64,000 bases of DNA from Bacteroidales bacterium (GTDB lineage Bacteria; Bacteroidota; Bacteroidia; Bacteroidales; F082): NCBI GenBank assembly GCA_017561025.1, contig JAFZDU010000074.1, positions 7,603-71,602 of the forward strand, read 5' to 3'. Within the stretch, counting starts at the first letter, position 1. Every line of letters begins with the position of its first letter. This document shows, piece by piece, positions 2,342-64,000 of the stretch. A program made the position numbers and the translations under genes. The notes under the pieces were generated by a model that saw only the letters and a program-made list of their open reading frames with translations, made no database searches and was not told the origin of the DNA.

Positions 2342-2374
2342 GACCACAAGACAACAGGACTACAAGACAACAAG
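2342..2374. repeat. Octamer word run GACCACAA GACAACAG GACTACAA GACAACAA
   Basis: Fills the rimO stop to next-ATG spacer. Confidence 0.8.
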
Positions 2375-12789: not shown

Positions 12790-12816
12790 GTTCAGGAATT
12801 CAGGAGTTCAGGAGTT
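12790..12816. repeat. Octamer word run GTTCAGGA ATTCAGGA GTTCAGGA
   Basis: Directly follows the hydC terminator. Confidence 0.8.
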
Positions 12817-12881: not shown

Positions 12882-12934
12882 GAATTCAAAAAAATCCTAA
12901 CGCCATCACCACATTACTTCATCACTAAAAAAAA

Positions 12935-12966
12935 CTTGTTGTCTTGAGTCTTGTAGACTTGTTGTC
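12935..12966. repeat. Octamer word run CTTGTTGT CTTGAGT CTTGTAGA CTTGTTGT
   Basis: Ends 9 nt before the -7 box of 12987. It is the reverse complement of the GACAACAA/GACTACAA family. Confidence 0.8.
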
Positions 12967-31780: not shown

Positions 31781-31799
31781 TAAGAGATTTTTATAAAAA

Positions 31800-31830
31800 C
31801 TCAGAATCTCAAAATCTCAGAATCTCAGAA
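31800..31830. repeat. Octamer word run CTCAGAAT CTCAAAAT CTCAGAAT CTCAGAA
   Basis: The last unit is the 5' arm of the terminator at 31823-31852. Confidence 0.8.
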
Positions 31831-31852
31831 ATGGGGTTCTGAGATTTTTTTT
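31823..31852 (+). terminator. Intrinsic terminator after 28031-31780
   Basis: TCTCAGAA/TTCTGAGA perfect 8-bp stem followed by T8. The 5' arm is the last unit of the word run at 31800-31830. Confidence 0.75.
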
Positions 31853-35385: not shown

Positions 35386-35419
35386 GCATTATGCATTGTG
35401 AATTATGAATTATGAAATT
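35386..35419. repeat. Word run GCATTATG CATTGTG AATTATG AATTATG AAATT containing the methyltransferase start codon
   Basis: ATG 35412 is part of the last unit. Confidence 0.8.
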
Positions 35420-37686: not shown

Positions 37687-37712
37687 AATTTACAATTCAT
37701 AATTCATAATGC
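37681..37712. repeat. Word run of ATTCATAA-type units around the ftsE start codon
   Basis: Reverse complement of the GAATTATG family seen at 35386 and 52857. Confidence 0.75.
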
Positions 37713-37726
37713 AAATATATAAAAAA

Positions 37727-37756
37727 GGCTAAAGGCGAAAGACAAAAGTCTAAAGG
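37727..37756. repeat. Word run GGCTAAAG GCGAAAGA CAAAAGTCTAAAGG
   Basis: xxCTAAAG family. Confidence 0.75.
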
Positions 37757-38905: not shown

Positions 38906-38943
38906 AATTCCTCAAATCCTCAATTCCTTAAATCCTCAGATTC
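38906..38943. repeat. Word run abutting the stop of 38943-39377
   Basis: Minus strand GAATCTGAGGATTTAAGGAATTGAGGATTTGAGGAATT, with stop triplets spaced 8 nt apart that cover all three frames. Confidence 0.85.
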
Positions 38944-39377
38944 TAACTAAAAGAAATCTCATCACTAAGTTCATTGACGTCATCGCTTTGATAAGGGAAG
39001 TAAGTCTTGAGTTTCTCGCCGCATTTCAATATTCCAGCGATGAGTCCGTCGGCGAATCTGTTCTCTTTGAACTTGGTTGTCATCTCGTCTTTGATGTCGT
39101 TCCAGAAGTCGTGTTCCACCTTTTTGTTGATGCCTTCGTCGCCTATGATGGCGAATTTATGGTCTTTTACGGCGAGGTAGAACAAGATGCCGTTGCGCGC
39201 GGCAGTACGATCCATCTTTAAATCGTAAAACACTTCTGCCGCGCGCTCCAGAGTCTCTTCTTTACAATGATTCTCAATATGCACTCTGATCTCGCCGGAG
39301 GTGTTGAGTTCCGCTTCCTTGATGGCAGCGACAATGTCGTGCTGCTCTTCCTTCGAAAAGAATGTTCTTGATGTCAT
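38943..39377 (-). CDS. TPM domain protein (cytoplasmic/short form)
   Basis: 144 aa with FSKEEQHDIVAAIKEAELNTSGEIRVHIE...FAIIGDEGI, as in TLP18.3/Psb32/MOLO-1-type domains. Confidence 0.7.
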   Translation of the reverse strand: MTSRTFFSKEEQHDIVAAIKEAELNTSGEIRVHIENHCKEETLERAAEVFYDLKMDRTAARNGILFYLAVKDHKFAIIGDEGINKKVEHDFWNDIKDEMTTKFKENRFADGLIAGILKCGEKLKTYFPYQSDDVNELSDEISFS

Positions 39378-40073: not shown

Positions 40074-40099
40074 ATAGTTCAAAGTTCAGTGTTCATAGT

Positions 40100-42096: not shown

Positions 42097-42125
42097 GTCT
42101 AAAGGCTAAAGACCAAAGTCTAAGG
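42097..42125. repeat. Word run GTCTAAAG GCTAAAGA CCAAAGTCTAAGG
   Basis: xxCTAAAG family, in the htpG upstream region. Confidence 0.75.
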
Positions 42126-42196: not shown

Positions 42197-42344
42197 CTTT
42201 AGTCATTTGTCTTTTGACTTTTGTCATTAGTCAATTTCTTTGGGCGTTCCGGCTTTGCCGTCGGGCTTTCCGCTATATCTTTGCTTGCTCCGTTATCACT
42301 CCGCTCGCAAAGGATGCCGCTCCAATCCCTAACGCATTGGGGCG
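42197..42344 (+). repeat. Left arm of a ~150-bp inverted repeat (word run + GC-rich element)
   Basis: The blocks TTTGGGCGTTCCGGCT, CCGTCGGGCTTTCCGCT.TATCTTTGCT.GCTCC and GCTCGCAAAGGATGCCGCTCCAATCCCTAACGCA recur reverse-complemented at 44692-44836. Confidence 0.9.
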
Positions 42345-42461: not shown

Positions 42462-43106
42462 ATGAAGAAAATCTATTTAATTATGACGCTTTGTATGATT
42501 ATGGTGTCATGTAAGCCAGATGGTGGTAATGGAAGACATGAAGATCATGAATATGTTGACCTCGGTTTAAGCGTAAAATGGGCTACATGTAATGTTGGAG
42601 CGAAATCGCCAGAAGGCTATGGACTATATTTTGCTTGGGGTGAGACAACTACAAAATCAGAGTACAATTCATCTAACTGCCCTATCTACGGACTTAGTGT
42701 GTCGGAGTTGCAATCACAAGAATATATAGATAGCGTGGGCAATCTTATGCCACAATATGATGCCGCTACAGCCAACTGGGGCGGTGATTGGAGAATGCCG
42801 ACAAGAACAGAACAAGAAGAATTATTGGATAACTGCACATGGAGTTGGGTGTCGCAAAACGGAGTTAATGGTTATAAGGTGACATCTAAGGTAAACGGTA
42901 ATAGTATTTATTTGCCTGCTGCTGGGTTTCGTGACGGGTCATTGCTTTTCAGCGATGGATATATAGGCCAATACTGGAGTTCTTCGCCTCTTGAAACCAA
43001 TCATTATGGTGCTTTTATGTTGTATTTTTATAGTGATGTTCAGCGTATGGATGGAAGTTATCGCGTTCTTGGTCAAAGCGTTCGTCCTGTCCTAGAAGAA
43101 AAGTAG
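42462..43106 (+). CDS. Small lipoprotein with DUF1566/Fib_succ_major-type domain
   Basis: Lipobox MVSC. YVDLGLSVKWATCNVGA...FAWGE...YDAATANWGGDWRMPTRTEQEELL...YWSSSP...GQSVRPV. Paralogous to the C-terminus of 2381-4003. Confidence 0.7.
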   Translation: MKKIYLIMTLCMIMVSCKPDGGNGRHEDHEYVDLGLSVKWATCNVGAKSPEGYGLYFAWGETTTKSEYNSSNCPIYGLSVSELQSQEYIDSVGNLMPQYDAATANWGGDWRMPTRTEQEELLDNCTWSWVSQNGVNGYKVTSKVNGNSIYLPAAGFRDGSLLFSDGYIGQYWSSSPLETNHYGAFMLYFYSDVQRMDGSYRVLGQSVRPVLEEK

Positions 43107-43373: not shown

Positions 43374-43406
43374 GTCTAATGGTTAAAGGCAAAAGACTAA
43401 AGTCTG
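43374..43406. repeat. Word run GTCTAATG GTTAAAGG CAAAAGACTAAAGTCTG
   Basis: xxCTAAAG family, in the methyltransferase leader. Confidence 0.75.
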
Positions 43407-43433: not shown

Positions 43434-44687
43434 ATGCAAAATTTCATAGATAAACTACAATCATCATTAAAAGAAGGTTCATTTGTAAAACTGACGTTGT
43501 CAAAACCAGTAGGGACGCGATTAATCGCATACGTAGGGACGCGATTAATCGCGTCCGTACAAGGACAATCAATAGAAGAATTACGTAACGTCTACGTGAA
43601 ACCTATCATCCTCAAAAACGAGAAGATGTATTCTTTCACATATCGTTACGAGAGAAGAGACGAGACCAAGAACTATGACGCTGAGCAGACTCTTGAGGTA
43701 ATCACGGAATTGCTTTCTGGAATATTTCTCAATGCTTCGTTGTTCACTCTTACTGAAGACGTCACTCTTCTCGTGAGCAAGAAAGGCAAGGCTACTGTCA
43801 TGTGCAAGGCTGTCAAGGAACAGAGAGAGCAGAACGTGCAGCACGACAAAGTCAAGAATCGTCTGATAAATACGGATAATCCTTGGTGGTTTAAGTTAGG
43901 TCTGACAACACGCGAAGGCAAGGTCACTGCTGACATGCAGCATAAGTTCAAGCAGATTTGCAAATATGTCGAGATTGTTGACGGCGTGATGAAGAACGTG
44001 AAGTTCGATGGCAAGATCCGCATCGCCGACATGGGAGCAGGGAAAGGTTATCTCACTTTTGCCTTATATGAATATCTCACACAGAAATGCAAATACGACA
44101 TCATGATGGAAGGCGTGGAGATACGTCCTGACTTAGTCGTTAAAATCAACGAGATAATAAAAGAATCAAATTTGAAAGACTTTCGTTTTGTGGAAAGTAG
44201 TATAGAATCCTTCGGATGTGGATGTCAACAGACAATGCCAAAGGTTCAAAGTTCAGAGTTCAAAGTTCAAAGTCAATTAGATGTCCTCATCGCTCTTCAT
44301 GCATGCAACACTGCCACCGACGATGCTATTATAAAAGGTATAAAGTCTGGGGCTAAGTTAATCATCTGCGCTCCTTGTTGTCACAAGCAGATCCGTCAGG
44401 AGATGGAGAAGTCGAAAGTCGTTGATCCTATCACACGTTACGGCATCTTCCTGGAACGTCAGGCGGTGATGATTACTGATGCGATACGGGCCTTGATAAT
44501 GGAATATTACGGTTACAAGACACAGGTGATGGAGTTCATCGAGATGGAACATACTCCTAAAAACATATTGCTCGTTGGAAGAAAGAGCGATGCACCGGTC
44601 GATAAAGAATCCATTTTGAAGCAGATAGAAGAATTGAAGAAACAATACGGAATAGAGAGACATTATCTGGAGAGAATCTTTGATTAA
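43434..44687 (+). CDS. Class I SAM-dependent methyltransferase (Methyltransf_32-like)
   Basis: SAM motif IADMGAGKGYLTFALY and LIALHACNTATDDAI. Carries two in-frame repeat insertions (43509-43556 and 44243-44274). Confidence 0.7.
   Translation: MQNFIDKLQSSLKEGSFVKLTLSKPVGTRLIAYVGTRLIASVQGQSIEELRNVYVKPIILKNEKMYSFTYRYERRDETKNYDAEQTLEVITELLSGIFLNASLFTLTEDVTLLVSKKGKATVMCKAVKEQREQNVQHDKVKNRLINTDNPWWFKLGLTTREGKVTADMQHKFKQICKYVEIVDGVMKNVKFDGKIRIADMGAGKGYLTFALYEYLTQKCKYDIMMEGVEIRPDLVVKINEIIKESNLKDFRFVESSIESFGCGCQQTMPKVQSSEFKVQSQLDVLIALHACNTATDDAIIKGIKSGAKLIICAPCCHKQIRQEMEKSKVVDPITRYGIFLERQAVMITDAIRALIMEYYGYKTQVMEFIEMEHTPKNILLVGRKSDAPVDKESILKQIEELKKQYGIERHYLERIFD
43509..43556 (+). repeat. In-frame 24-nt tandem duplication carrying a 20-nt perfect palindrome, inside the methyltransferase CDS
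   Basis: GTAGGGACGCGATTAATCGCATAC / GTAGGGACGCGATTAATCGCGTCC. The palindrome GGACGCGATTAATCGCGTCC spans 43537-43556. Encodes VGTRLIAY/VGTRLIAS. Confidence 0.9.
44243..44274 (+). repeat. In-frame GTTCAAAG word run inside the methyltransferase CDS
   Basis: GGTTCAAA GTTCAGA GTTCAAA GTTCAAAGTC. The 17-mer at 44258-44274 is the reverse complement of intergenic 61027-61043. Confidence 0.85.
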
Positions 44688-44691: not shown

Positions 44692-44836
44692 CCCCTTTGC
44701 GTTAGGGATTGGAGCGGCATCCTTTGCGAGCGGAGCGAGCAAAGATAGAGCGGAAAGCCCGACGGCGGAGCTGAAGGCGTAGCCGGAACGCCCAAAAAAA
44801 GACTAAAGACTAATGACAAAAGCCGAAAGACTAAAG
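44692..44836 (-). repeat. Right arm of the ~150-bp inverted repeat
   Basis: See 42197-44344. Starts 5 nt after the methyltransferase stop. Followed by further word units at 44845-44883. Confidence 0.9.
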
Positions 44837-44984
44837 AATTTTTAGATTAAAGTTTGAAATGTAAAGAGGTTAAAGTCCAAGGCAAAAAATAAATTTAAAA
44901 AACTCTTTCCATATAAATAAAAATGTTTATCTTCGTGGACTTGAAAAAAACACAAAGTATTTAACGTTAAAAAAAATAAATATC

Positions 44985-48044: not shown

Positions 48045-51000
48045 ATGAAAAAACTTACTTTCTTAATGCTGACTGTCTTAGTTTGCTTGTTGCAAGTCAA
48101 TGCTCAGCAGTTCGTTTCTACAGAAGTACAAAATAGAAACGCTATCATTGAAGAATTCACAGGAAGAAATTGCGGATACTGCCCTGATGGTCACGTTATC
48201 GCTAACTCAATCGTTCACGCTAACCCAGGTAGAGTATGGGCAGTTAATGTCCATGCCGGCGGTTACGCTCCAACATCTTATCCTAACTTCAATACAGATG
48301 TCACCAATACTATCATGAACGGTTTTAGTGTTACCAGTTTCCCTTCAGGCGTTGTTAACCGTTCAACGGCAACAGCTCAAGGTCGCGGTTCATGGCAATC
48401 ATTAACAACACAGCAACTTTCTCAAACAGCAGAATGTAACGTTGGCGGTCAAGCTATCATCAATCCTCTTACACGCACAGCAAAGATCAACGTTGAAGTA
48501 TATTATACATCAAACAGCGCTTCTTCAACAAACTATCTCACAATAGTTATGTTGCAAGATAGTATCTGGGGCTCACAGTCAGGCGGCAGCTCAAACCCTG
48601 ATCAATATGTAGGTGGTCAATATTGCCACATGCACATCCTCCGCGATGCAATCACTGCTGACTGGGGCGACCAAATCTCTCCAACAACAGCAGGTACTTT
48701 GATCTCAAAAGAATATATGTACCAAATCCCTGAATCAATAGGTTCTCCTAATGGTGTTGCAGTCGACCTCGATAATATCATTTTCTTAGCTTATGTATCA
48801 GAAAAATATCAAGGAACACCAACACGTGCTATCCTCAACGTAAACGAGTTGAACACAATGCAAGGCTCAGAAGAAGACTTGTATCCTTATATCACAAACG
48901 TAGCTCCAACAACATCTATCTCATGTTCAACAACAAAGACAATGAAGATAGATTTAGTCAACGGCGGTTTGCAAACTCTTACATCATTGAAGTTACAAGC
49001 AAAGGTTGGTAATTCACAACCTGTTGAATTCGATTGGAATGGTAATGTTCCTTCTTATGGATTGTTCTCAATTGAAAAAGATCTCAACGTTCCTTTCGGA
49101 TCACATATCGTAGAAGTTAAAATCATTCAAGCAAACGGCACTGCATTCGAGTTTTCAAAAGAAACAGTAATCGATAGCGAAGAATGGACTGAAGTTCAAA
49201 TCGATGGCGAGAAAGAAGAACTCACAATCAATATCATGCAAGATAAATATGGCAACCAAACCACATGGGAACTCATTGCATCAGACTACAGCGTTATCGC
49301 TTCTGGTGGACCTTACACAATGTTGGTAGGCGGTTCAACAGCAACACAATTACATACTGAAAAAGCAACAGTAAATAGCGGCGACTGTGTCAAATTCGTT
49401 ATTAAAGACAATATTGGCAATGGCATCTGCTGCCAATACGGTGAAGGCTACTATCAAATCAAAGATAGCAAAGGTAACATACTTGTTGATGGCGACGGCG
49501 CATTCGGTTCAGAAGCATCTGTTCTTTTGTCAATCCAAGGTAATGATGACGGAGAAGACGATGGTGATGATGATGACGATGACAACAACGGCGAAGTTAA
49601 CGCAGATTATGTTTCAACAACACCACAAAACAGAAACCTTCTCATCGAAGAGTTCACAGGAAGAAACTGTCCTAACTGCCCAGCAGGTCATATCATCTCA
49701 AGCGGCATCACACATGACAATCCTGGAAGAGCATGGAGCATGGGTATCCACTCAGGTTATTTCGCTGTGACAACATATCCTAACTTCAATACAGATATCA
49801 GTGCTATCTTCACTGATCCTTACGATGATGTTCAAGGCGGTCTCGGTTATCCTGCTGCTGTTTTGAACCGTTCAACAGAAGAAGCATTGGGAAGAGGCTA
49901 CTGGGAAGCAGCTGCTGCTGAACAACTCCAAATCGCTGCTGAATGTAATGTAGGCGGTCATGTCACTATCGACCCTATCACTCGCAAGGCTTATATCACA
50001 ACAGAAGTTTACTACACAGCAAACAGCGCTGAGTCAACAAACTATCTCACTATCGTTATGTTGCAAGATAGTATCGCTGGTCAGCAAGCATACGGTCATA
50101 CTAACCCTGCTCAAGATCTCGGCGATGACATGTATTGCCACATGCACGTCCTCCGCGATGTCGTTACTTCTTCATGGGGTGATGCTATAACTCCTACAAC
50201 AGAAGGTTCTTTGGTTAAGAAGACTTACGAATATAGCATTCCAGAAATCATCGGCGACCCTAACGGCGTGACCGTTGATTTGGATAATATCTACTTCATC
50301 GCTTTTGTTACTGAGAAATATCAAGGCATGCCAACACGTCCAATCTTGAATGTTAACAAATTATCACAAGAACAATCGACAGGCATGGCAGTGTCACCTT
50401 ATATCTCAGACCTCGTAATGGAAGAAGGCGTATTCTGCGCTAACTCAAGAACATTCAAAAACTACGTTAAGAACGTCGGTTCTTCAGCACTCACATCAAT
50501 GAAGTTTGAAGTTAAAACTGCTGACGGTAATGTAGTTGAACATTCATGGGAAGGCAACATCGCTCCCGATGCAACAGAACGTATCGACATCACTTTAGAT
50601 ATTCCTTTCGGCAACAACGAAATAGATTTCAATATCGTTGAGGCTAACGCTCAATCTCATGACTATACTAAATCTGTTATGGCTCTCTGCGATGAATGGG
50701 ATGAATATGATACAGGTTGTATAGAAGAAATACCATTGACAATTGAAATCATGCAAGATAAATATGGTAACCATACAACATGGGAGTTCATGTCATCAGA
50801 TAACACAGTCTTAGCTTCAGGCGGTCCTTACAGCTATTTGCCTAACGCTAATTCAGAATTACATACTTACACAGTTAATGTTATGGAAGACTGTTATAAA
50901 TTCGTTATTTATGACAGCTATGGCAATGGTATCTGCTGCGGTGAAGATGGCGACGGATATTACAGAATCCTTGACGAAGGCGGCAATATCGTCGTCGATG

Positions 51001-51308
51001 GTAACGGCGAATTCGAAGACATCGCTTACAGCATTCTTTCAGTCAAGACATCAGGATCTGTTAACGATGTGATTGCATCTGCATATAATATTTATCCTAA
51101 CCCAGCAAAAGATATGATAACAGTGAAAGGTGCAAATATGAGCCAAATCAAGGTTTACAATGCCTTAGGTCAGATGGTTAAAGCTATAGACTGCGACGCA
51201 AATGAAATGAATATCAGTGTTAATAACTTGCAAAATGGAATCTATTTCATCAATATCACAAATGATAAAGGTGAAATGACAACGAGCAAAGTCTCAATTC
51301 AACATTGA
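48045..51308 (+). CDS. T9SS-sorted fusion of two Omp28-like units (A-B-C-acidic linker-A-B-C-CTD)
   Basis: First unit is ~85% identical to 46215-47972 at its N-terminus. Linker GNDDGEDDGDDDDDDNNGE. Second unit restarts at YVSTTPQNRNLLIEEFTGRNCPNCPAGH with no signal peptide. Single C-terminal domain IYPNPAKDMITV...GIYFINI. Confidence 0.8.
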   Translation: MKKLTFLMLTVLVCLLQVNAQQFVSTEVQNRNAIIEEFTGRNCGYCPDGHVIANSIVHANPGRVWAVNVHAGGYAPTSYPNFNTDVTNTIMNGFSVTSFPSGVVNRSTATAQGRGSWQSLTTQQLSQTAECNVGGQAIINPLTRTAKINVEVYYTSNSASSTNYLTIVMLQDSIWGSQSGGSSNPDQYVGGQYCHMHILRDAITADWGDQISPTTAGTLISKEYMYQIPESIGSPNGVAVDLDNIIFLAYVSEKYQGTPTRAILNVNELNTMQGSEEDLYPYITNVAPTTSISCSTTKTMKIDLVNGGLQTLTSLKLQAKVGNSQPVEFDWNGNVPSYGLFSIEKDLNVPFGSHIVEVKIIQANGTAFEFSKETVIDSEEWTEVQIDGEKEELTINIMQDKYGNQTTWELIASDYSVIASGGPYTMLVGGSTATQLHTEKATVNSGDCVKFVIKDNIGNGICCQYGEGYYQIKDSKGNILVDGDGAFGSEASVLLSIQGNDDGEDDGDDDDDDNNGEVNADYVSTTPQNRNLLIEEFTGRNCPNCPAGHIISSGITHDNPGRAWSMGIHSGYFAVTTYPNFNTDISAIFTDPYDDVQGGLGYPAAVLNRSTEEALGRGYWEAAAAEQLQIAAECNVGGHVTIDPITRKAYITTEVYYTANSAESTNYLTIVMLQDSIAGQQAYGHTNPAQDLGDDMYCHMHVLRDVVTSSWGDAITPTTEGSLVKKTYEYSIPEIIGDPNGVTVDLDNIYFIAFVTEKYQGMPTRPILNVNKLSQEQSTGMAVSPYISDLVMEEGVFCANSRTFKNYVKNVGSSALTSMKFEVKTADGNVVEHSWEGNIAPDATERIDITLDIPFGNNEIDFNIVEANAQSHDYTKSVMALCDEWDEYDTGCIEEIPLTIEIMQDKYGNHTTWEFMSSDNTVLASGGPYSYLPNANSELHTYTVNVMEDCYKFVIYDSYGNGICCGEDGDGYYRILDEGGNIVVDGNGEFEDIAYSILSVKTSGSVNDVIASAYNIYPNPAKDMITVKGANMSQIKVYNALGQMVKAIDCDANEMNISVNNLQNGIYFINITNDKGEMTTSKVSIQH

Positions 51309-51334
51309 TTTATGACGAAAGTCTAAAGACAAAA

Positions 51335-51367
51335 GGCTAAAGGTTTTCCCGACCTTTAGCCTTTTTT
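51335..51367 (+). terminator. Intrinsic terminator after 48045-51308
   Basis: GGCTAAAGGT/ACCTTTAGCC perfect 10-bp stem followed by T6. The 5' arm continues the word run at 51321-51343. Confidence 0.8.
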
Positions 51368-51380: not shown

Positions 51381-51411
51381 AAGAGACGCAAAGACACAGA
51401 GACGCAGAGAC
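51381..51411. repeat. Word run AAGAGACGCA AAGACACA GAGACGCA GAGAC
   Basis: Lies downstream of the ion-channel gene stop (minus strand). Confidence 0.6.
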
Positions 51412-52804: not shown

Positions 52805-52857
52805 AGACGCATCAATGTGTGTTTATTTTAATAGGAATCATTGATACGTCTCTACAA
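52805..52857 (-). repeat. Hairpin element H4
   Basis: AGACGCATCAATG-21 nt-CATTGATACGTCT + CTACAA. About 85% identical to H2, including the loop, with one compensatory pair change. Confidence 0.85.
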
Positions 52858-52882
52858 TTATGCATTATGAATTATGAATTAC
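52857..52882. repeat. Word run ATTATGC ATTATGA ATTATGA ATTAC overlapping the pyrF stop
   Basis: GAATTATG family. On the pyrF strand the order is stop, run, then H4. Confidence 0.8.
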
Positions 52883-53688
52883 AAAAACGCTGCCATTTGT
52901 TCTTGTAATTTCTTTGCTTCATCAGCTGCTTTTTCTGCGAAGTCTTGTTCTTTTGAAGCGTAGATGATGCCTCTTGATGAGTTGACCAACAAACCGCATT
53001 CTTTGTTGAGACCGAATTTAGCTACTGCTGCCAAGTCGCCGCCTTGTGCTCCAACGCCAGGAACCAAGAAGAAGTGATTTGGCAACATCTGTCTGATTTC
53101 GCCTAATTCTTCAGGGTGTGTTGCGCCAACAACGTACATCATCTTGCTGTCGTCAGCCCATGTGCTTGACTTAGCGAGAACTTCTTTGTAAAGTTCACGA
53201 CCTTCAATGTTGAGGTATTGGAAATCTTTTGAACCTTTGTTTGAAGTGAGTGCTAACAAGATAACCCATTTGTCTTCGAAGCCTAAGAATGGTTCTACTG
53301 AATCTAACCCCATGTAAGGAGCTACTGTGATAGCGTCGCTGCTCATTGATTCGAAGAATGCTCTTGCGTAGTTAGCTGATGTGTTGCCGATATCGCCTCT
53401 CTTAGCGTCAGCGATGACGAAAATCTCAGGATAGTTAGCTTTGATGTATTTTATTGTCTTGTCCAAGCTTTCCCAGCCTTTAGCGCCGTATACTTCGTAG
53501 AAAGCAGTGTTAGGTTTGTAAGCTACTGTATATTGAGCTGTTGCATCGATGATTTGCTTGTTGAATTCGAAGACTGGATCTTCACATTCTAAAAGATGTT
53601 GAGGAATCTTGTTGATGTCGGTGTCTAAACCAACGCAAAGGAATGATTTCTTTGCAAATATCTGTTCTACTAATTGTTGTTTGTTCAT
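52879..53688 (-). CDS. pyrF: Orotidine 5'-phosphate decarboxylase
   Basis: 269 aa with LCVGLDTD and [13 protein letters not shown] (type 2 PyrF). Confidence 0.9.
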
Positions 53689-53699: not shown

Positions 53700-53800
53700 T
53701 TAGTTTAAAGTTTATGGTTTAAAGTGGTTTTAAAGTTGATAGTTTAAAGTTATTAAGTTTATAAAATTCAACCTTAAACCTTAAGCTTTAAGCCTTAAAC
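53700..53800. repeat. ~100-nt word palindrome between prfA and pyrF
   Basis: The left half has four (G)GTTTAAAG-type units. The right half has CCTTAAAC/CTTTAAGC units, which are their reverse complements. Confidence 0.8.
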
Positions 53801-56094: not shown

Positions 56095-58557
56095 TTATTT
56101 GTTAAAGATGAGATTCATGGTTTCGGTGTCGATGGTGAACTCTCCGAATTGTTTGAGAGTCTTTTCTCCGATAAGCCAATCTGTTCTCAAATTGTTATAT
56201 ACTCTTACTTTTACATTTTTCACTGAACGGTTTGCAATCCACATCTCTTTGATGATGAACTCTGCTCTGTCGGCAACAGCGCCAATGGTGATGATTCTCT
56301 CTATGTTCTCACCAATGAAGTCGTCTTTTGTGATGACGCCGTCGTTCAACATCTTCATGACTTTTTTCTGTGATACTCCAAATTCGAAGTCTTTGTCGTA
56401 TGTTATATTTTCTGTATATGCATTGACTGTAGCCTTGAATGATATATATCCTTGTTTGTCCACTGCAATGGATACTTTGTTGTCGTCAGGTCTCATGTTG
56501 ACATTGGCCATCTGTTCGTCGCTGATGTTCTCGCGTGGTATATAGTCTTTGCTGATGACTCTGAATTCTGTTCTACGATTCAGTTGATGTGCAAATTCTT
56601 TCAACTCGTCGTTTGATAAGTTCTTGATATAATCTTCTGTGAGAGTTGTTCCTGCTTTGATAGTGAATCCGTTGAATGTATAGTCTTTATGCAATGTTCT
56701 TGGCACGCGTTCTCCATATCCTTTTGCAGTGAGACGGAATGGGTCAATACCTCTGATGACGAGATAGTCGCATACTGACTGGGCACGTCTTTGTGATAAG
56801 ATATCGTTCTTTTCGTGAGTGTCGCGGCTATCGGTATGTGAGCCTAATTCAATTGCGATGCTTGGGTTGACTTGTAACAATTCAATGAGTCCTCTGAGTG
56901 AGTCTTCAAACTGCGGTCTTAATTCCCATTTTGACAATTCGTACAAGATATCAGGAAGTACGATAGGCATATCTGGAATTACGCTAATCTCATAATCCTT
57001 ATTGAAGTCTCTGCTGAACTCCAGTCCTACAGTGCTGATAGTGTCTGTGAAACTGAAGAAGTTTTTCTTTTCAATGCTAAGGATATATATGTTGTTAGCT
57101 TTTATCTGTGTGTTGGTGAACAAGAATGCTCCTTTTTCACTACTGTTGGTTGTGAAGTTTGAGCCATCTGAGCCGCTTACTTTTACTGTTGCACCTTCAA
57201 CATATTGGAGGCTGTTTTGGTTCTTGATGGTTCCGCTGATGGTGAATAGGACAGGAGGTTCGATGAAATAGTATATGTCGTCATCGAGTCCGTTTTTCAC
57301 GTCTCTGTTGCTGATGAAGAAACCTCTTTCTTCTGACGGATGGAATGTGATTCCATAATCATTGCCAATAGAATTTATTGGTGATTTGAGGTTTACTGGA
57401 GCTGACCATTCTCCTAATGAGTCTAATGTAGTGACGTAGATGTCGAGTCCGCCCATTCCGCCATGACCGTTAGAAGCGAAATATAGAGTGCTGTCGTTTC
57501 TCATATATGGATAGAGTTCGTCACCTTCAGTGTTGATGATTTCGCCTATGTTTCTAGGACGGCCGAATTTTTCTGAAGTGCTTTCTCTTTCTGACATCCA
57601 GATGTCTTTTCCGCCTATTCCGCCTTTACGTTCTGAAGCGAAGAAGAGTTTTAATTCGTCGCTCGATAATGTTGGGTGCCCTACGACATCGAGACTGTCG
57701 ATGGTTGTTATTTCCACTGCTACAGGTTCGCTCCATGCGCTACCTGTGCGTGATGACTTCATAATCTGGCAGCCTGATTCTCTTTTCTTATGATTTGGAC
57801 AACGTGTGAAATACATTGTCGAGAAGTTCTTGTTCATGAAAGGAGTTCCTTCGCTGCCTGTTGAGTTGATTCCTTCTTCGTCGGCCAATACAGCTTCTTC
57901 CCATTCGCCTTGTTTGTTCATTCTTGCGATGTAGAAGTCTGCGAAGCTTTGGCCTGTGATAGCGTCTTTTTCTTTAGAGACGCCGCCTTCTCTTGTTGAA
58001 GAGAATATCACTTCATTGTAATTGTTTGAGACCCATGCCACGCCGAATTCAGCTGCTTTAGAGTTGATTTTCTTCAGTCGTGTCACTTCATATTTTGAAG
58101 GAAATTCTATCCATTCTTTGATATATTGCATGTCTTCCAATGCAGCGAAGCCTCTTGGGTCGTCAGGAACTAATTCGTTGTATATTGTATAGTATTCTGC
58201 AGCCAATTCATATTTCTGGTTTCTTTTCAGTACGTCGGCATAGTTGAGGTATACTATAGGGTTTTCTTTAGGGAATTCAGTTCTGAGTAATCTCTTGTAT
58301 TGTGACTCTGCAAGTTTTGGAGCTTCTGTGAGTCGGTAGCATTCTGCAAGACGGTAGGTGATATGGATACGATCTTCTTCGTATTTTTTCTTTCCTGTCT
58401 TTTTGTATGCTTTTTTATATCTTTCTATTGCAACATTGTATTGTTTGCGTTCGAATGCTATGTCGGCAGATTTGCTAGGGCTTTTACGTTGAGCGCAAAC
58501 AGGTTCTGCGGCACCTAAAACAATGACTATGAGTATGAGAAATAATTTCTTTAACAT
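56095..58557 (-). CDS. OmpA family protein with TPR, TolB-like beta-propeller repeats and a C-terminal extension
   Basis: Signal peptide, TPR-like N-terminus and repeated ELYPYMRNDSTLYFASN-type propeller blades. OmpA_C motif ELGSHTDSRDTHEKNDILSQRRAQSVCDYL. About 170 extra C-terminal residues. Confidence 0.75.
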   Translation of the reverse strand: MLKKLFLILIVIVLGAAEPVCAQRKSPSKSADIAFERKQYNVAIERYKKAYKKTGKKKYEEDRIHITYRLAECYRLTEAPKLAESQYKRLLRTEFPKENPIVYLNYADVLKRNQKYELAAEYYTIYNELVPDDPRGFAALEDMQYIKEWIEFPSKYEVTRLKKINSKAAEFGVAWVSNNYNEVIFSSTREGGVSKEKDAITGQSFADFYIARMNKQGEWEEAVLADEEGINSTGSEGTPFMNKNFSTMYFTRCPNHKKRESGCQIMKSSRTGSAWSEPVAVEITTIDSLDVVGHPTLSSDELKLFFASERKGGIGGKDIWMSERESTSEKFGRPRNIGEIINTEGDELYPYMRNDSTLYFASNGHGGMGGLDIYVTTLDSLGEWSAPVNLKSPINSIGNDYGITFHPSEERGFFISNRDVKNGLDDDIYYFIEPPVLFTISGTIKNQNSLQYVEGATVKVSGSDGSNFTTNSSEKGAFLFTNTQIKANNIYILSIEKKNFFSFTDTISTVGLEFSRDFNKDYEISVIPDMPIVLPDILYELSKWELRPQFEDSLRGLIELLQVNPSIAIELGSHTDSRDTHEKNDILSQRRAQSVCDYLVIRGIDPFRLTAKGYGERVPRTLHKDYTFNGFTIKAGTTLTEDYIKNLSNDELKEFAHQLNRRTEFRVISKDYIPRENISDEQMANVNMRPDDNKVSIAVDKQGYISFKATVNAYTENITYDKDFEFGVSQKKVMKMLNDGVITKDDFIGENIERIITIGAVADRAEFIIKEMWIANRSVKNVKVRVYNNLRTDWLIGEKTLKQFGEFTIDTETMNLIFNK

Positions 58558-58603: not shown

Positions 58604-58631
58604 TGAAAAAAAATGATATGATTTTAAAAAT

Positions 58632-58664
58632 AATGAGGAATTAGGAGTTAGGAATTAGGAATGA
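58632..58664. repeat. Word run AATGAGGAATTAGGAGTTAGGAATTAGGAATGA
   Basis: GAATTAGG family. Shares a 15-mer with the rimO insertion. Confidence 0.8.
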
Positions 58665-58704: not shown

Positions 58705-58734
58705 ATATAAAAGAGGCGTCATTTGACGCCTCTT
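58705..58734 (-). terminator. Terminator hairpin spanning the stop codon of 58719-59270
   Basis: AAGAGGCGTCA/TGACGCCTCTT 11-bp palindrome. On the minus strand it is followed by TTTATATT. One arm encodes the last residues (RGV). Confidence 0.55.
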
Positions 58735-59270
58735 ACAACCATGCCTATAGTTATACTATGAATGTTTAGTATGTTACAATCTTTTAATGGTAAAGAGTAA
58801 TTGTAATGCAATCGTATCATCCAGATATCATTTCTCTTTGATTTTTTATTGTTTAGAAATTCTAAATCAACATTTACCCCAATTGAAGATATGGGAGTGC
58901 TTTTCAAATTATAGTCATTACTATGATTCATAATGCCGAATCCTAATAATGGTGTAATTTGTAAAATACTTTTGTCAGTTAGATTGTAACCGGTCAGTAT
59001 GCCATAATTGAACATAGTGTTTTTTGAGTTCCATCCACCTTGACTATAAAGAGAAGTTTGTATTCGATTGTGATATAAATCTATACCCCATTTACAATTT
59101 CCATAACTATTGATGTTGTTAGTGGAGAATTCTTTGCTGATGCTGATTCCTCCTGAAATAGATGTTCCGAAACACCATTTTGAATGTGAAGGTGATTCTT
59201 GACCTATACATAAATTTGCATAAGTCAACTGCATAACAAAAACTAGAAGTAATAAATTAATTTTTTTCAT
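58719..59270 (-). CDS. Hypothetical secreted protein, possible small outer-membrane beta-barrel
   Basis: 183 aa with a signal peptide (MKKINLLLLVFVMQLTYA), alternating aromatic/Gly-rich strands and a C-terminal hydrophobic strand. No family recognised. Confidence 0.4.
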   Translation of the reverse strand: MKKINLLLLVFVMQLTYANLCIGQESPSHSKWCFGTSISGGISISKEFSTNNINSYGNCKWGIDLYHNRIQTSLYSQGGWNSKNTMFNYGILTGYNLTDKSILQITPLLGFGIMNHSNDYNLKSTPISSIGVNVDLEFLNNKKSKRNDIWMIRLHYNYSLPLKDCNILNIHSITIGMVVRGVK

Positions 59271-59385: not shown

Positions 59386-60939
59386 TTATATAAGTCCTTC
59401 TTTGAGGCTATTTTGCATGAAATCAATCAGCTTATTGTTATTGAGTGATTCTTTAAGTTTACTTGTTACTCTCTTGCGACGACTTACAATGCCTTGATAT
59501 GATAATGATAGTAATCCTGCTTTTTGAATTTCTGTCAAAGGAAGAATGGAAATGAAGCAATAATCAAGTTCGATACTGCTCATGTCTGAATGCTTTGATG
59601 TGAATTTGTGTGTGAAGTCATTGAATATGGAATCTATAGTTGTTTTATACATGCTAATTTCAGTAGTAGTAAGTGGATTCTTAAAATACATTATACTGTC
59701 TCCCATCAAATCTTTGTTGTTATCGCATCTTTCTATAATTGATATAACTATCTCTGTTTCTTGAAATGCTTTCCATTTTTCTAAATACAAAGTGTTGGTT
59801 ACTTCCTCGCAATTTGATGCCTTATTTTTTATAGCATTAAGTTTTATTGTTACAACAATGACAATTACTATTATTACAAAAATACATATAGGTTGAGCAC
59901 TTTTTTTATTGCTTTCAATCTTTATTTTGTTTGTTAGATAATTGTCGTATGTCTTTGATATTTCTGAATTTTGGATTTTAAGATCTAAATACGTTCTTTG
60001 GATTTCACGATGCAAGCTCGCATATTTAGCAGATTCTTTTTCATTACCTAATTCTTTATAAATTTCAGCTAAACCTTCTGCTGCATCTCTTTGATCAAAT
60101 AAATCTGGTGAGCGGAATGCTTCCAGAGCATAATACAAAGCAGAGTCATATTCTTTTTCTGCATAATATGCATAAGCAGCAGCCCTATTCATGGAATAGT
60201 ATATGGATGTATATTTAGGCACATTTTGTAGTGCTTTGTTTCGAAGTATTAAGGCTGAGTCTTGTTTGTGAATTGACCTATAATAATATGATAAACAGTA
60301 ATAATAGTAGGCTTTTTCATAAGATTGTTCTGGAAACTTGGATAGATAATTTTCGGCTGTCTTTATGTAATATAAATTAGTATCCGGATTGTTCCCGTTT
60401 TTGTCAAGCATATCACAAAAACTTCCTAATGTCAAATATTCAACTGCCAAGTGCGATGAGTCGTTACACTCATGAAATTCATTTATACATTCCAATAATA
60501 AATCGAAAGATTTATTGAAATGCTCAGATAAAAGAAATAATGATGAAATTTTCTTATATATTAAACCTGTCAAATAGTGTTTCTTTATATCATAGTATTG
60601 ACTGTTTATATTATCTAATGTTTTTAAAGATATAACATAATTGTTCATGGCATTATTATAATCTAAATTTGCAGCATTTATACTGCCTAAAATATGGTAA
60701 GACCTGGCTTTGTTCCATTTTATTTCTAGATCATTATGAATTATGTCGAGAGAGTCAAAATAATTTGCCACATGTAAGATTGCTGAATCATTGTAAATTT
60801 GATGCCAACTATTTAATAGCTGTTCGTGCATGTCAATAACTATTTCATATTGTGTTTTATAATCTAATGTGTTATCATCTGTAGTGACATCATATGTTGT
60901 TATCAATGATAGTATTAACAAGATTAAAGTAGTTTGCAT
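59386..60939 (-). CDS. TPR-repeat membrane protein, possible DUF6377-like regulator
   Basis: N-terminal hydrophobic segment, TPR-like Y/A-rich repeats, a central TM (ICIFVIIVIVIVVTI) and a C-terminal ~130 aa with a weak HTH-like segment (LTEIQKAGLLSLSYQGIVSRRKRVTSKL). Start moved to ATG 60939 because a TACATTTG box sits at 60960-60967. Confidence 0.4.
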   Translation of the reverse strand: MQTTLILLILSLITTYDVTTDDNTLDYKTQYEIVIDMHEQLLNSWHQIYNDSAILHVANYFDSLDIIHNDLEIKWNKARSYHILGSINAANLDYNNAMNNYVISLKTLDNINSQYYDIKKHYLTGLIYKKISSLFLLSEHFNKSFDLLLECINEFHECNDSSHLAVEYLTLGSFCDMLDKNGNNPDTNLYYIKTAENYLSKFPEQSYEKAYYYYCLSYYYRSIHKQDSALILRNKALQNVPKYTSIYYSMNRAAAYAYYAEKEYDSALYYALEAFRSPDLFDQRDAAEGLAEIYKELGNEKESAKYASLHREIQRTYLDLKIQNSEISKTYDNYLTNKIKIESNKKSAQPICIFVIIVIVIVVTIKLNAIKNKASNCEEVTNTLYLEKWKAFQETEIVISIIERCDNNKDLMGDSIMYFKNPLTTTEISMYKTTIDSIFNDFTHKFTSKHSDMSSIELDYCFISILPLTEIQKAGLLSLSYQGIVSRRKRVTSKLKESLNNNKLIDFMQNSLKEGLI

Positions 60940-60959
60940 AATTATTATGGTTAACAATG

Positions 60960-60967: not shown

Positions 60968-61026
60968 ATATTTTTTTCTTAGATCCTTTTATACATTTGA
61001 ATCCAAGAAACTCAATATCGCAGAAT

Positions 61027-61064
61027 GACTTTGAACTTTGAACTGTTGTCTGTTGTCTGTTGTC
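61027..61064. repeat. Word runs (GACTTTGAA CTTTGAAC)(TGTTGTC x3)
   Basis: Distal to the secDF terminator. Confidence 0.85.
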
Positions 61065-61096
61065 AAAAAAAAGAGCCCCTGAAAATCAGGAGCTCT
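61065..61096 (-). terminator. Intrinsic terminator after secDF
   Basis: Minus strand AGAGCTCCTGA-TTT-TCAGGGGCTCT (one U-G) followed by T8. Confidence 0.75.
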
Positions 61097-61101
61097 CTCA
61101 A

Positions 61102-61133
61102 CTTTAGCCATTAGCCATTAGCCATTAGCCAAT
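61102..61133. repeat. Octamer run (CCATTAGC)x3.5 abutting the secDF stop
   Basis: On the secDF strand TAA is followed by TTGGCTAATGGCTAATGGCTAATGGCTAAAG. Confidence 0.9.
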
Positions 61134-64000
61134 TATTTCTTTTTTGTATTAGCTGCTTCTAATTCTGCATCGTATTCTTTACCTTTGAAAAGTCTGTATG
61201 CCAAAGGTGTAGCGATGAACATTGAAGAGAATGTACCAGCGATCATACCAACTAACAATGCGAATACGAAACCGCGGATTGTTTCACCACCGAAGATGAA
61301 GATTGCTAACAATACGACTATTGTTGTACCTGATGTGTTGATAGAACGTAACAATGTGCTGTTGTTTGCACTGTTGAAGAGCTCTCTCCAGCCTTTCTTA
61401 GGGAATAATGTAACGTTTTCACGTACACGGTCGAAGATAACCACTGTGTTGTTGATTGAGTAACCGATGATTGTCAAAACAGCAGCGATGAATGATTGGT
61501 TGACTTCCATTGTGAATGGTAATACATTGTTGAGCAATGAGTACATACCGATAACGATCAATGTGTCGTGAGCCAAACAAACGATGCTTGACAAACCATA
61601 TTGCCATCTTCTGAAACGGATAGCGATGTAAACGAACATAACAACGAGTGATACGATAACAGCAACGACAGCTTTACGTGTTACGTCGTCAGCAACTGTA
61701 GCACCAACTTTTTGTGAGCTTAAGATACCGAGTAATACGTTGCTCTTGTCTGAGTCTGTTGTGAATTGTTCGTATGTCATTTCTGTGTTGTACAAGCCTT
61801 TGAGTGCGTTGTAGATGAGACCTTGGATTTCTGCGTCAACGTCTTGTGCGTTGTCGTTGATCTTATAGTCTGTTGTTATCTTAACTTGGCGGCTTGGACC
61901 GTATGTCTTAACTTCTGGAACGCTTTCGAATTCTTTAACGTTTGCTAAAGCGCTGCGTACTTCGTTAACTGTAACGTCTTTGTCGAAACGTACAACATAG
62001 TTACGTCCACCTTTGAAGTCGATACCGAGGTTTAATCCACGTACTGCGATTGAACCAACGCTGATAACGATGAAGATAACTGCGATGATAGCTGCTCTCT
62101 TACCGAAACCGATGAAGTCGAATGCTGTGTTCTTTAAGAAGTCGCGTGTGGCGTTATTTGAGAAGTTGATGTTCTTGTCTTTCTTCAACCAGCCTTCAAA
62201 TACTAAACGTGAGATGAAGATTGATGTGAACAATGATGTAGCGATACCAATCATCAATGTTGTTGCGAAACCTTGAACAGGACCTGTACCGAATTGGAAC
62301 AATACGAATGCTGTCAAGAATGTTGTGATGTTACCGTCGATGATAGCTGAGTAAGCAGCTTTGTAACCGTCTGCGATAGCTGTTCTTAAACCTTTACCTG
62401 CGCGTAATTCTTCTTTGATACGTTCGAAGATGATAACGTTAGAGTCAACTGCCATACCGAGTGTCAAAACGATACCTGCGAGACCTGGCAATGTCAATAC
62501 TGTTCCGAATGATGCTAATACGCCGAACATGAAGAAGATGTTGACTAATAAAGCTGCGTCTGCTGCGATACCAGCTTTGTTGTAGAAGAACATCATATAA
62601 ATAAGAACGAGGATGAAAGCGATGATGAGTGACCAGAGACCTGATTGGATAGCTTCTTGACCTAATGATGGACCAACAACGTTTTCTTCGAGGATTCTTG
62701 CTGGAGCTGGTAATTTACCTGCTTTCAAGATGTTAGCTAAGTCTTGTGCTTCTTCAACTGTCATGTCACCGCCAGAGATTGATGAACGTACGCTTGGGAT
62801 TTCATCGTTAACAACTGGATATGAATATACGTAGTTGTCGAGAACGATAGCAACTTGTCTGCCGATGTTTTCACCTGTTAAGCGTTTCCATGCTTTAGCG
62901 CCTTCGCTGTTCATTTGGATTGTAACTTCAACGCGACCGTTTTGATCGTAGTCTTGACGAGCGTCAACGATAACTTCACCGCCGAGAGCAGCTTTGTTGT
63001 CACGTGATGTCTTTAATGCAACGAGGTCGATATATTCAACGCCACCCATTGTGTTAGGTTTTACGCACCATGCGAATCTAACGTTACGTGGGAATACGTT
63101 CTTAACTTGCTTGAGCATTCTGTTGATGTTAGCTGTATCTTTTACTAAAGCCATACCAACGCGTGCTGTTTGAGCTGGGTATGTTTGACCCATTTCGTTT
63201 TGATAGTAAGAAGGTGTCAAATAGTTGTAGATAGGGAAGTTAGCTCTCATTTCTTTCAAAGCTTCTTCTTGTGCTTTTAAAGTGTCGTTTGCTAAAAGAG
63301 CTGGTTCGTTATCACTATTTTCTTCTTTAACTTCTTCTGTTAAAGCTTCGTTTGCTTTGTTGATTTCAGCAAGACGTTTGTTAGCTTCGTCGAAATATTC
63401 GTAAAGTTCTGTGAAGTTGTATGTTTCCCAGAATTCGAGTTGTGCTGTACCTTGTAAGAGTTTGCGAACACGTTTAGGATCTTTGATACCTGGGAGTTCA
63501 ACAAGGATACGTCCTGAGTTTTCTAATTTTTGGATGTTTGGTTGTGCAACGCCGAAACGGTCGATACGTGTTCTTAAGATTTGGTATGAACGGTCGATAG
63601 CGCTGTTTGTTTCGTCTTTGATAACGCTCAAAACTTCAGCGTTTGTTGAGTTGACTGTTATACCTTTGTCTTTGAATTCGAACAAGAAGATAGGAGCTAA
63701 TTTTGCATTAGGATCTAATTGTTGGAAAGCGTCACCGAACAAGTCAACATAATCTCTTTGGCTGTTGAGGTGTTGTTCGTTAGCCATTTGGATAGCTTGG
63801 ACGAAAACTGGGTCTGTGCTGTGGCCTGAAAGAACTTCGATGATGTCTGGAACTGAAACTTCCATCATAACGTTCATACCACCTTTAAGGTCGAGACCTA
63901 AGTTGATTTCCATTTCTTTTGCTTGACGATAAGTTTGTCCTAATGGATAAACTTTCACTGTGCTCATTGAATCTAAATAATAAGTTTCTCTAGCACTTTG
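61133..64000 (-). CDS. secDF: Protein translocase subunit SecDF (fused), 5' end outside the window
   Basis: INLGLDLKGGMNV and two RND-like 6-TM bundles. The reading frame stays open upstream of the ORF-track Met (63967) to the window edge. Confidence 0.9.
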   Translation of the reverse strand, partial: QSARETYYLDSMSTVKVYPLGQTYRQAKEMEINLGLDLKGGMNVMMEVSVPDIIEVLSGHSTDPVFVQAIQMANEQHLNSQRDYVDLFGDAFQQLDPNAKLAPIFLFEFKDKGITVNSTNAEVLSVIKDETNSAIDRSYQILRTRIDRFGVAQPNIQKLENSGRILVELPGIKDPKRVRKLLQGTAQLEFWETYNFTELYEYFDEANKRLAEINKANEALTEEVKEENSDNEPALLANDTLKAQEEALKEMRANFPIYNYLTPSYYQNEMGQTYPAQTARVGMALVKDTANINRMLKQVKNVFPRNVRFAWCVKPNTMGGVEYIDLVALKTSRDNKAALGGEVIVDARQDYDQNGRVEVTIQMNSEGAKAWKRLTGENIGRQVAIVLDNYVYSYPVVNDEIPSVRSSISGGDMTVEEAQDLANILKAGKLPAPARILEENVVGPSLGQEAIQSGLWSLIIAFILVLIYMMFFYNKAGIAADAALLVNIFFMFGVLASFGTVLTLPGLAGIVLTLGMAVDSNVIIFERIKEELRAGKGLRTAIADGYKAAYSAIIDGNITTFLTAFVLFQFGTGPVQGFATTLMIGIATSLFTSIFISRLVFEGWLKKDKNINFSNNATRDFLKNTAFDFIGFGKRAAIIAVIFIVISVGSIAVRGLNLGIDFKGGRNYVVRFDKDVTVNEVRSALANVKEFESVPEVKTYGPSRQVKITTDYKINDNAQDVDAEIQGLIYNALKGLYNTEMTYEQFTTDSDKSNVLLGILSSQKVGATVADDVTRKAVVAVIVSLVVMFVYIAIRFRRWQYGLSSIVCLAHDTLIVIGMYSLLNNVLPFTMEVNQSFIAAVLTIIGYSINNTVVIFDRVRENVTLFPKKGWRELFNSANNSTLLRSINTSGTTIVVLLAIFIFGGETIRGFVFALLVGMIAGTFSSMFIATPLAYRLFKGKEYDAELEAANTKKK

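Follow-up and report, generated by a model that had tools for sequence, protein, structure and literature searches.

Lineage-specific tandem arrays of 7- and 8-nucleotide units between the genes of gut Bacteroidales

The DNA analysed here is a stretch of 64,000 nucleotides (the window) from a Bacteroidales bacterium of the F082 lineage (assembly GCA_017561025.1, contig JAFZDU010000074.1, positions 7,603 to 71,602). Its gene boundaries carry short runs of 7- or 8-nucleotide (nt) units repeated head to tail, of which the 3' end of secDF is the example. The secDF gene (61133..63967, minus strand; Pfam SecD_SecF_C, SecDF_P1_head and Sec_GG) ends with a TAA stop codon (61133..61135, minus strand, from the list of open reading frames (ORFs)). 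After a gap of one base comes an exact heptamer run, (TGGCTAA)x4, at 61104..61131 on the minus strand (Tandem Repeats Finder (TRF): period 7, 4.0 copies, 100%). The TAA of its units falls in frames 2, 0, 1 and 2. An intrinsic terminator recognised in the sequence follows (61065..61099, minus strand), with a 14-bp hairpin whose arms are GAGAGCUCCUGA UUU UCAGGGGCUCU and a U8 tract that reads A8 at 61065-61072 on the plus strand. The 121-nt stretch of the terminator region gives an RNA fold of -36.5 kcal/mol (z -3.2). Directly 3' of the U-tract stand two more exact runs on the minus strand, (GACAACA)x3.1 (61043..61064, TRF) and (GTTCAAA)x2.4 (61028..61044, TRF period 7). This order of elements had been described in the original prediction and is borne out, with two corrections: the first run had been read as (GGCTAATG)x4 and the last as an octamer, (GTTCAAAG)x2, and all three runs are of period 7. 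In orthologues from the window's clade the terminator hairpin is mostly kept, and the spacer between stop codon and terminator holds some array in most members, with variable sequence.

Such runs form a non-random class throughout the window. In the TRF search (arrays of at least three copies), 15 arrays of period 7 and 8 of period 8 were detected, against 0.1 and 0.03 in 30 dinucleotide-preserving shuffles. All 22 other positions first listed hold tandem or near-tandem words, two of them weak (31909 and 44845). The unit length had been given as almost always 8, sometimes 7 or 9; among the 25 coordinates, about 15 are of period 7 and 8 of period 8, and there is no enrichment at 9. The period-7/8 arrays have 2.8-12 copies with 65-100% matches, no spacer between the units, and a median length of 32 nt. 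Lag periodicity of intergenic DNA, proposed at the outset as a check, gives strong peaks that favour 7 over 8. In the window the autocorrelation peaks at lag 7 (z=9.1) and lag 8 (z=5.3). In intergenic DNA of the clade (26.6 kb) the values rise to z=30 and 27.6, with harmonics at 14, 16, 21 and 24. Coding DNA shows period 3 only.

The length rule is sharp and is already present in pairs. Intergenic DNA contains 91 exact two-copy duplications of 7 nt and 35 of 8 nt, for 2.3 and 1.0 expected, and those of 4, 5, 6, 9 and 10 nt are at or below chance. Outside arrays the counts are 10 against 1.8 for 7 nt and 7 against 0.8 for 8 nt. Essentially no arrays of periods 5, 6 or 9-12 were found in the window and 21 close loci, a set of 333 kb (8.2% intergenic and 91.8% called coding) that also underlies the location counts below.

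The 209 arrays comprise 90 distinct canonical units, which occur in both orientations. No single binding motif can therefore account for them, and the early suggestion of RNA-protein binding arrays fits this diversity poorly. The units are nevertheless more alike across loci than chance allows: 21 close pairs were counted, against 4.35 +/- 1.95 for letter-shuffled units, so that the related word families first noticed by eye do recur. One of these, taken for an octamer family xxCTAAAG, is the 7-mer NCTAAAG, which begins with A, G or T about equally often and whose conservation is partly forced by the search filter. GAC/GTC mini-hairpins in NCTAAAG runs were considered and dropped, being present in 5/7 window runs for about 53% expected, which is not significant.

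Most period-7/8 arrays (178) are intergenic and 31 lie in called ORFs. The original prediction had stressed that nearly all runs lie within about 60 nt of a start or stop codon. This figure is uninformative because the median intergenic region is 107 nt; the observed share is 72%, and random placement within those intergenic regions gives 68%. The true boundary signal is direct abutment of stop codons. Stop-side arrays overlap the stop codon or lie no more than 3 nt from it in 46/99 cases (8% for random placement), and only 3/56 start-side arrays touch the start codon. Part of this bias is expected, since the promoter and leader fill the zone upstream of starts and the spacer between stop and terminator is short. 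Stop-abutting arrays often begin within the last codons, and their sense strand is 41% A and 9% C. In the clade the spacer from stop to hairpin has a median of 34 nt, about 11 nt longer than the 23 nt of relatives (p=5e-5), and all three frames are closed at a median of 36 nt past the stop against 83 nt (p=2e-10); the outgroup of both comparisons is not matched in G+C content.

The distribution of the arrays is restricted. When GTDB species genomes were scanned with SecDF, all matches were uncultured Bacteroidales metagenome-assembled genomes (MAGs) from herbivore guts, the best of them 97% identical and several labelled Candidatus Limimorpha. The 21 loci with at least 87% SecDF identity (269 kb) hold 6.43 period-7/8 arrays per 10 kb. 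The density is 0.57 per 10 kb in 59 loci with at most 76% identity (770 kb), and 0.70 in 80 contigs of other Bacteroidia found by prfA (810 kb), where period 7 is still the commonest. The prfA scan of metagenomes had given only relatives at no more than 81% identity, hence its use as outgroup. Arrays are carried by 21 related genomes in the 5-15 kb around secDF, and by the window over 64 kb. The feature is a roughly ten-fold, lineage-specific amplification of a general weak heptamer preference.

Some exceptions were noted among the array-poor sequences. In L029 (Ca. Limimorpha caballi, 72% SecDF identity), the region ~8930-9130 downstream of secDF carries more than 25 copies of AACCTTT/AACCCTC, preceded by a 10-mer run (CACCACGAAT); array-poor sister lineages can thus still hold long arrays. 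Several period-7/8 arrays each were seen in L120, L121, L129 and L156, and other Bacteroidia may have independent bursts. In the same set (L081-L160), period-11 arrays are unexpectedly common (n=15).

Orthologous intergenic regions, whose comparison had also been proposed at the outset, differ by gain or loss of whole units or by outright replacement. L003 and L004 (95.4% identity) are separated by 19 indels in 14.8 kb, nearly all in arrays, among them changes of one unit (7 nt), of three units (24 nt) and of 8 nt. Arrays are the main source of indels between close strains. Three runs were compared in strains and in species 92-97% identical to the window. The NCTAAAG heptamer run that starts from the stop of gene 48045..51308 (51318..51343, plus strand, TRF) has 4, 6 or 11 units before an unchanged terminator. 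The octamer run (AGAGACGC)x3.8 (51382..51411, plus strand, TRF) has one extra unit in strain L186, and (TTCATAA)x3.7, from the stop codon of pyrF (52879..53688; run at 52856..52881, minus strand, TRF), varies from 2 to 4 units.

Elsewhere the whole site is exchanged. At 38906..38943 (minus strand, TRF), (GAGGAWTT)x4 starts from the stop codon of gene 38943..39377 and puts stops in all three frames; other strains have a (GGAATTA)x4 allele. The gap between prfA and pyrF holds (AGTTTAA)x7.9 and (AACCTTA)x4.4 (53702..53800, TRF) in the window, and different arrays or a hairpin resembling repetitive extragenic palindromic (REP) sequences in other species and strains. The gap between htpG and lemA contains three unrelated modules among strains 97-100% identical in htpG, two of which consist of an array followed by its own inverted copy. 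In L167 both arms of a terminator are lengthened by one shared unit. The run (GTTCAGGA)x3.4 (12790..12816, plus strand, TRF), placed after a terminator and beside a GC-rich hairpin module, does not differ among 7 strains, and L167 lacks the module entirely. Point differences between strains mark (CTTGTNGT)x3.8 (12934..12962, plus strand, TRF), upstream of the promoter of gene 12987..14750. Among strains at least 99% identical the arrays do not change, and they are therefore not hypermutable contingency loci.

Array units often copy adjacent unique sequence, such as the last codons with the stop or a terminator arm. The prfA-pyrF gap is an example. In all species prfA ends in ..LKEN-stop; a stop context of GAGAATTAG goes with an array of (GAGTTAG)n, and one of GAAAATTGA with (AAATTGA)n. 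In L058 there is just a proto-repeat, GAATTAG-GAATTGTAG, and L015 has eight units. Seeding from the stop context accounts for the stop triplet found in the unit of 87% of stop-abutting arrays, and for the fact that three units give a stop in every frame. Three-frame coverage holds at precisely the loci for which it had been claimed and fails at the exceptions named with them; the accompanying caution that it cannot be the whole explanation was right.

Seeding from terminators is seen at two sites. The last unit of the run at 51318..51343 is the 5' arm of the terminator hairpin 51331-51365, and the last two units of the octamer run (CTCAGAAT)x4.6 (31795..31832, plus strand, TRF) are the 5' arm of the terminator of gene 28031..31780. 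The description of these runs as iterated copies of the 5' arm thus stands at 31795-31850 and 51318-51365. As a general rule it was rejected: an exact reverse-complement unit lies nearby in 19/209 arrays against 9 in controls, and terminator tuning, once suggested as a function, would fit few arrays only. The original prediction rightly kept function as speculation.

Arrays inside genes preserve the reading frame. In murB the exact run (CTCAATTC)x4.6 (32775..32811, minus strand, TRF) is in frame and encodes ..EFPQFLNSSIPQFL... It corresponds to a 15-residue gap in the comparison with the solved MurB structure 4jay. Loop length in MurB homologues changes in steps of 8 residues (24 nt), that is three units, and the exact 4.6-copy run is unchanged among strains at least 99% identical. 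Two other in-frame runs on the plus strand are (GAATTAG)x4.7, in a linker of a MiaB-like radical-SAM gene (1376..1408, TRF), and (GTTCAAA)x4.9, in a methyltransferase gene (44239..44273, TRF). In the ABC ATPase gene upstream of secDF, clade members have a linker with 0-22 extra residues made by different arrays, and outgroups have none of these residues. Arrays add new loops to essential proteins such as MurB.

They also mislead the calling of start codons and ORFs, since they can be translated as N-terminal extensions. Some database murB calls start with MEGQRTTDNRQQT, a translated (GACAACN) array. For the LemA-family gene (39396-40082), the listed TTG start, which lies within an array, is probably incorrect. 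A start at 39983 agrees with public gene calls and with a conserved AAAAAGGAGAAAAT-ATG context, and makes the htpG-lemA gap about 115 nt and not 17 nt.

The original prediction knew of no described class with this organisation, but intergenic, lineage-specific and variable heptanucleotide repeats have been described (PMC2670836; PMC4679880; PMC4692102). In the broad sense the runs belong among the known long heptamer repeats, of the simple sequence repeat (SSR) or short tandemly repeated repetitive (STRR) kind. Their units are contiguous and in excess over composition, they are confined to non-coding DNA or to in-frame positions, and their copy number changes by whole units, as in long SSRs (units of 5-11 nt). 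The closest precedent is provided by the GGGAATC / GGGGAYT repeats of Xanthomonas and Nostoc (Rehm et al. 2015), which are about 90% intergenic, lie much nearer to the gene upstream (mostly 0-50 bp past its stop), form some inverted pairs, vary in length and sequence between close relatives and are lineage-specific (PMC4692102). Like the runs described here, they are tandem 7-nt repeats, intergenic, stop-proximal and variable. Those genomes, however, have one dominant G-rich unit capable of forming quadruplexes, whereas at least 90 mostly A/T-rich units occur here, octamers are nearly as common as heptamers and the arrays are short.

For the long SSRs of Mrazek, Guo and Shah (2007), later summaries report units of 5-11 nt with heptamers most abundant and a sporadic taxonomic distribution (PMC4679880, PMC4060949), and give polymerase slippage with a roughly 7-nt footprint as the proposed cause (PMC4679880). 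Long SSRs and the present runs are alike in their head-to-tail arrangement and in the exclusion from coding DNA of units that are not multiples of three. They differ in that long SSRs are mainly reported from large, high-GC genomes of non-pathogens, and the window belongs to a gut anaerobe of about 40% GC with 8% intergenic DNA.

STRRs were reportedly first described by Mazel et al. in 1990, and we take the units of STRR1-3 to be CCCCAGT, TTGGTCA and CAACAGT. None of these three is among the 90 canonical units. STRRs are few defined heptamers of heterocystous cyanobacteria; the units here are different and so is the phylum. The cyanobacterial repeats are 7-bp intergenic tandem units in many operons, capable of forming hairpins and of unknown function, with speculation on transcript stability or translational coupling (PMC2670836). 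The TAACTGA direct repeats (MacGregor 2015) occur in Beggiatoaceae, cyanobacteria and five Bacteroidetes including Paludibacter, as 2-6 intergenic copies mostly just upstream of starts and in sense orientation (PMC4679880). The TAACTGA repeats lie near gene boundaries, as do the runs here, and the Bacteroidetes that have them include some with other heptamer repeats in their intergenic regions (PMC4679880). No TAACTGA array, in any rotation or on either strand, is among the 90 canonical units, and the TAACTGA repeats are start-side where the present runs are stop-side.

A further parallel is found in the Borg tandem repeats of Methanoperedens, which are genome-specific, fast-evolving and enriched in A on the coding strand (PMC9879509). 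The two share this A-enrichment, starts within ORF ends and new in-frame protein loops, and partial repeats flanking the Borg arrays suggest local seeding, as here (PMC9879509). Borg units are perfect, measure some 18-50 nt or more and fall inside ORFs in about half of the cases, and their hosts are archaeal extrachromosomal elements; the units here are of 7-8 nt. The present runs stand out by their host (gut Bacteroidales), near-equal octamers, diversity of units and density. Three further classes were ruled out. Phase-variation SSRs do not fit arrays that mostly lie past stops or upstream of promoters and are stable at 99% identity and above. REP sequences, bacterial interspersed mosaic elements (BIME) and miniature inverted-repeat transposable elements (MITE) are excluded by the lack of a shared consensus and by nearby reverse-complement units in 19/209 arrays only. 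CRISPR arrays have repeats of 23-50 nt with unique spacers, against contiguous 7-8 nt units.

We think it probable, if far from certain, that the runs are locally born hepta- and octanucleotide microsatellites, similar to long SSRs and STRRs, that are kept where a frameshift is harmless. A local stretch of 7 or 8 bases, such as a gene's last codons and stop, a terminator's 5' arm or the end of a REP-like hairpin, would be duplicated in tandem. Whole units would then be gained or lost through slipped-strand mispairing at replication or repair, and point mutations would let the copies drift. As 7 and 8 are not multiples of three, arrays would survive only in spacers between stop and terminator, in spacers between terminator and next promoter, and in rare coding loops where three units keep the frame. 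In this lineage duplications of this sort would be some ten times as frequent as in its relatives. The individual arrays probably have no sequence-specific function, and all-frame stops, alternative terminator arms and a stop-to-hairpin spacer longer by about 11 nt would be by-products. From the observed excess, location, local seeding, unit-step polymorphism and lineage restriction, we infer slippage as the molecular mechanism and neutrality of the arrays.

Several observations weigh against this account. The 7/8 ruler, very sharp and present at birth, is not explained by generic slippage, nor is the recurrence of word families at unrelated loci. The unrelated modules in near-identical strains look as if alleles had been replaced or generated in one step, and not built up by stepwise slippage. 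Strains with 99% identity or above do not differ in their arrays. The placing of arrays at the borders of inserted or swapped modules is another point that slippage leaves unexplained. A short ancestral spacer explains part of the 46/99 stop-side abutment, but probably not the whole of it. Finally, the persistence of some array in the secDF spacer of most clade members could reflect selection.

Some of these points would be met if the arrays were made not by ordinary polymerase slippage but by a dedicated, length-ruled process, and were scars at the junctions of inserted or replaced modules. Candidates for such a process are templated break-repair synthesis (with loop-out giving direct and snap-back giving inverted copies), the joining by ligation of 7-8 nt flaps left unprocessed, or footprints of mobile elements with a 7-8 bp staggered cut. 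It would account for the length specificity that even two-copy duplications show, with no excess at 6 or 9, and for hairpins made of an array and its inverted copy, as in the htpG-lemA gap, the terminator arms of L167, and L001, L058 and L032. Arrays also stand at both edges of a 2.45-kb segment that L001 and L058 lack, and flank GC-hairpin, REP-like and Flavo-1 modules; unrelated alleles occupy one site in near-identical strains, and a Y1 transposase gene lies near one locus (L175). Against this, sequence that is otherwise collinear shows clear steps of one unit and of three units, the process would have to strike repeatedly in one register to make an exact four-copy run such as (TGGCTAA)x4, and no target-site duplication or element end can be defined. 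The mild heptamer preference, moreover, extends across unrelated Bacteroidia and is reported across prokaryotes (PMC4679880), so a clade-specific element is not required. On balance a dedicated process seems unlikely.

Selection on the arrays as cis-elements of the mRNA is decidedly improbable in our view. Post-stop arrays would then close the three frames and keep the terminator hairpin off the terminating ribosome. In variants of the idea an RNA-binding protein with an effect on 3'-end stability would use them as A-rich, C-poor single-stranded platforms, and upstream arrays would tune promoters. The abutment of stops but rarely of starts, the composition of the sense strand (41% A, 9% C), the earlier closure of frames (36 against 83 nt) and the longer spacer (34 against 23 nt) all point this way, as does the filling of the secDF spacer in most clade members despite variation in sequence. 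The run (TTCCTAA)x4.4 (58632..58662, minus strand, TRF), some 45-75 nt upstream of the TAnnTTTG-type promoter of gene 56095..58557, is moreover conserved in five species (L002, L003, L004, L010 and L015), and regulatory roles have been proposed for the heptamer repeats of Nostoc and Beggiatoaceae. However, the 90 units are found in both orientations, and coding regions contain the same words. Close relatives that are otherwise unchanged replace arrays by a REP-like hairpin or by nothing, and more distant ones manage with 23-nt spacers and no arrays. The outgroup of the frame-closure and spacer comparison is not G+C-matched, and stop-triplet content is automatic if the stop codon was the seed.

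The two ideas can be joined, in a form that we also hold to be quite doubtful: the clade would have acquired a length-ruled process that copies 7 or 8 local bases, directly or in snap-back inverted form, and arrays close to stops would afterwards have been kept as spacers, and as stops in all frames, before terminators. What was acquired may have been altered flap processing, altered repair synthesis or an altered mobile-element nuclease. If this were true, the comparison of array-rich with array-poor sister genomes could reveal the cause of bacterial heptamer repeats, which have been known for 35 years in cyanobacteria, xanthomonads, Beggiatoaceae and others and whose mechanism and function are not established. 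The lineage is well suited to such work: its arrays stand at about one per 1.5 kb, public metagenomes already contain many of its strains and species, and sisters at 73-76% SecDF identity are largely devoid of arrays, which makes comparisons of gene content and indel spectrum possible.

That the arrays are artefacts of assembly or contamination is vanishingly unlikely and was rejected: the sources are MAGs and repeats can in principle be misassembled, with nothing else found in support, but arrays of 22-50 nt are shorter than assembly reads and k-mers, and at orthologous positions the arrays turn up again in MAGs and contigs of many independent projects and assemblers, in up to seven independent strains without a single base difference.

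The remaining runs of the window show the same variety of positions. On the plus strand, (GACNACAR)x4 (2342..2372, TRF) fills a 39-nt gap between a stop and the next start, and the last unit of (ATTATGA)x4.1 (35388..35416, TRF) holds the start codon of gene 35412..36992. The run (TCTTGTAG)x4.5 (36985..37020, TRF) extends across the overlapping 3' ends of two convergent genes, and 37680..37756 (TRF) combines (AATTCAT)x4.4 over a start codon with (AAAGGCT)x4.7 upstream of the start. (ACTNTGA)x4.9 (40076..40109, minus strand, TRF) includes the stop codon of htpG (40100..42001). Two NCTAAAG-type runs on the plus strand have four units each (42098..42125, and 43375..43402 with degenerate units).

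Two others adjoin copies of Flavo-1, a NCTAAAG-type run at 42202..42233 (minus strand, TRF) and (AAAGACT)x5.7 at 44798..44837 (plus strand, TRF). These Flavo-1 copies, both adjoining arrays, were the sole Rfam matches in the window, where no array was matched. They are inverted, at 42255-42348 (minus) and 44694-44768 (plus), with 44 and 41.5 bits for a gathering score of 42. The pair brackets genes 42462..43106 and 43434..44687, with a NCTAAAG-type heptamer run beside each copy. In Flavobacterium psychrophilum, Flavo-1 matches are sense or antisense to transcripts and many are untranscribed (PMC9723704), for which reason Flavo-1 may be a DNA-level repeat.

The 2.45-kb segment mentioned above (58614-61063) lies between the secDF terminator and the next promoter and is absent from L001, L058 and most relatives. 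It contains two genes, 58719..59270 and 59386..60957, neither of which has a Pfam match. Arrays are present at both edges; (GACAACA)x3.1 is at one of them, with a break of synteny at 61064. At the upstream end of the segment, 60964-61025 has a 62-nt exact match elsewhere in L005.

Three other kinds of module were observed. An imperfect REP-like palindrome (..AGACGCNTCAATG..N..CATTGANACGTCTCTACAATT) is dispersed in intergenic DNA at ~37764-37828, 37835-37895, 38797-38858 and 52812-52856, and also in L004, L015, L058 and L179-L186. It is often bordered by AATTAGG-type words, and its presence differs between close strains at sites where others carry arrays. The Y1 transposase (PF01797) gene of L175 is a fragment at the edge of that locus. 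A GC-rich hairpin module (..GAGCCTGTCGAAG..loop..CTTCGACAAG..) is found at unrelated intergenic sites, ~12817-12890, ~39990-40060 and ~3085-3160 of L005, flanked by GTTCAGGA/GTTCAAG and CTTGTAGT runs; L167, which lacks it wholly, is 99.7% identical in the neighbouring gene. Lastly, two strains of the same species as the window (99% identity) carry an insertion sequence with a DDE_Tnp_1 transposase (L161, 1717-3315) directly after the murB terminator, in place of the intergenic sequence at window positions 31781-31990.

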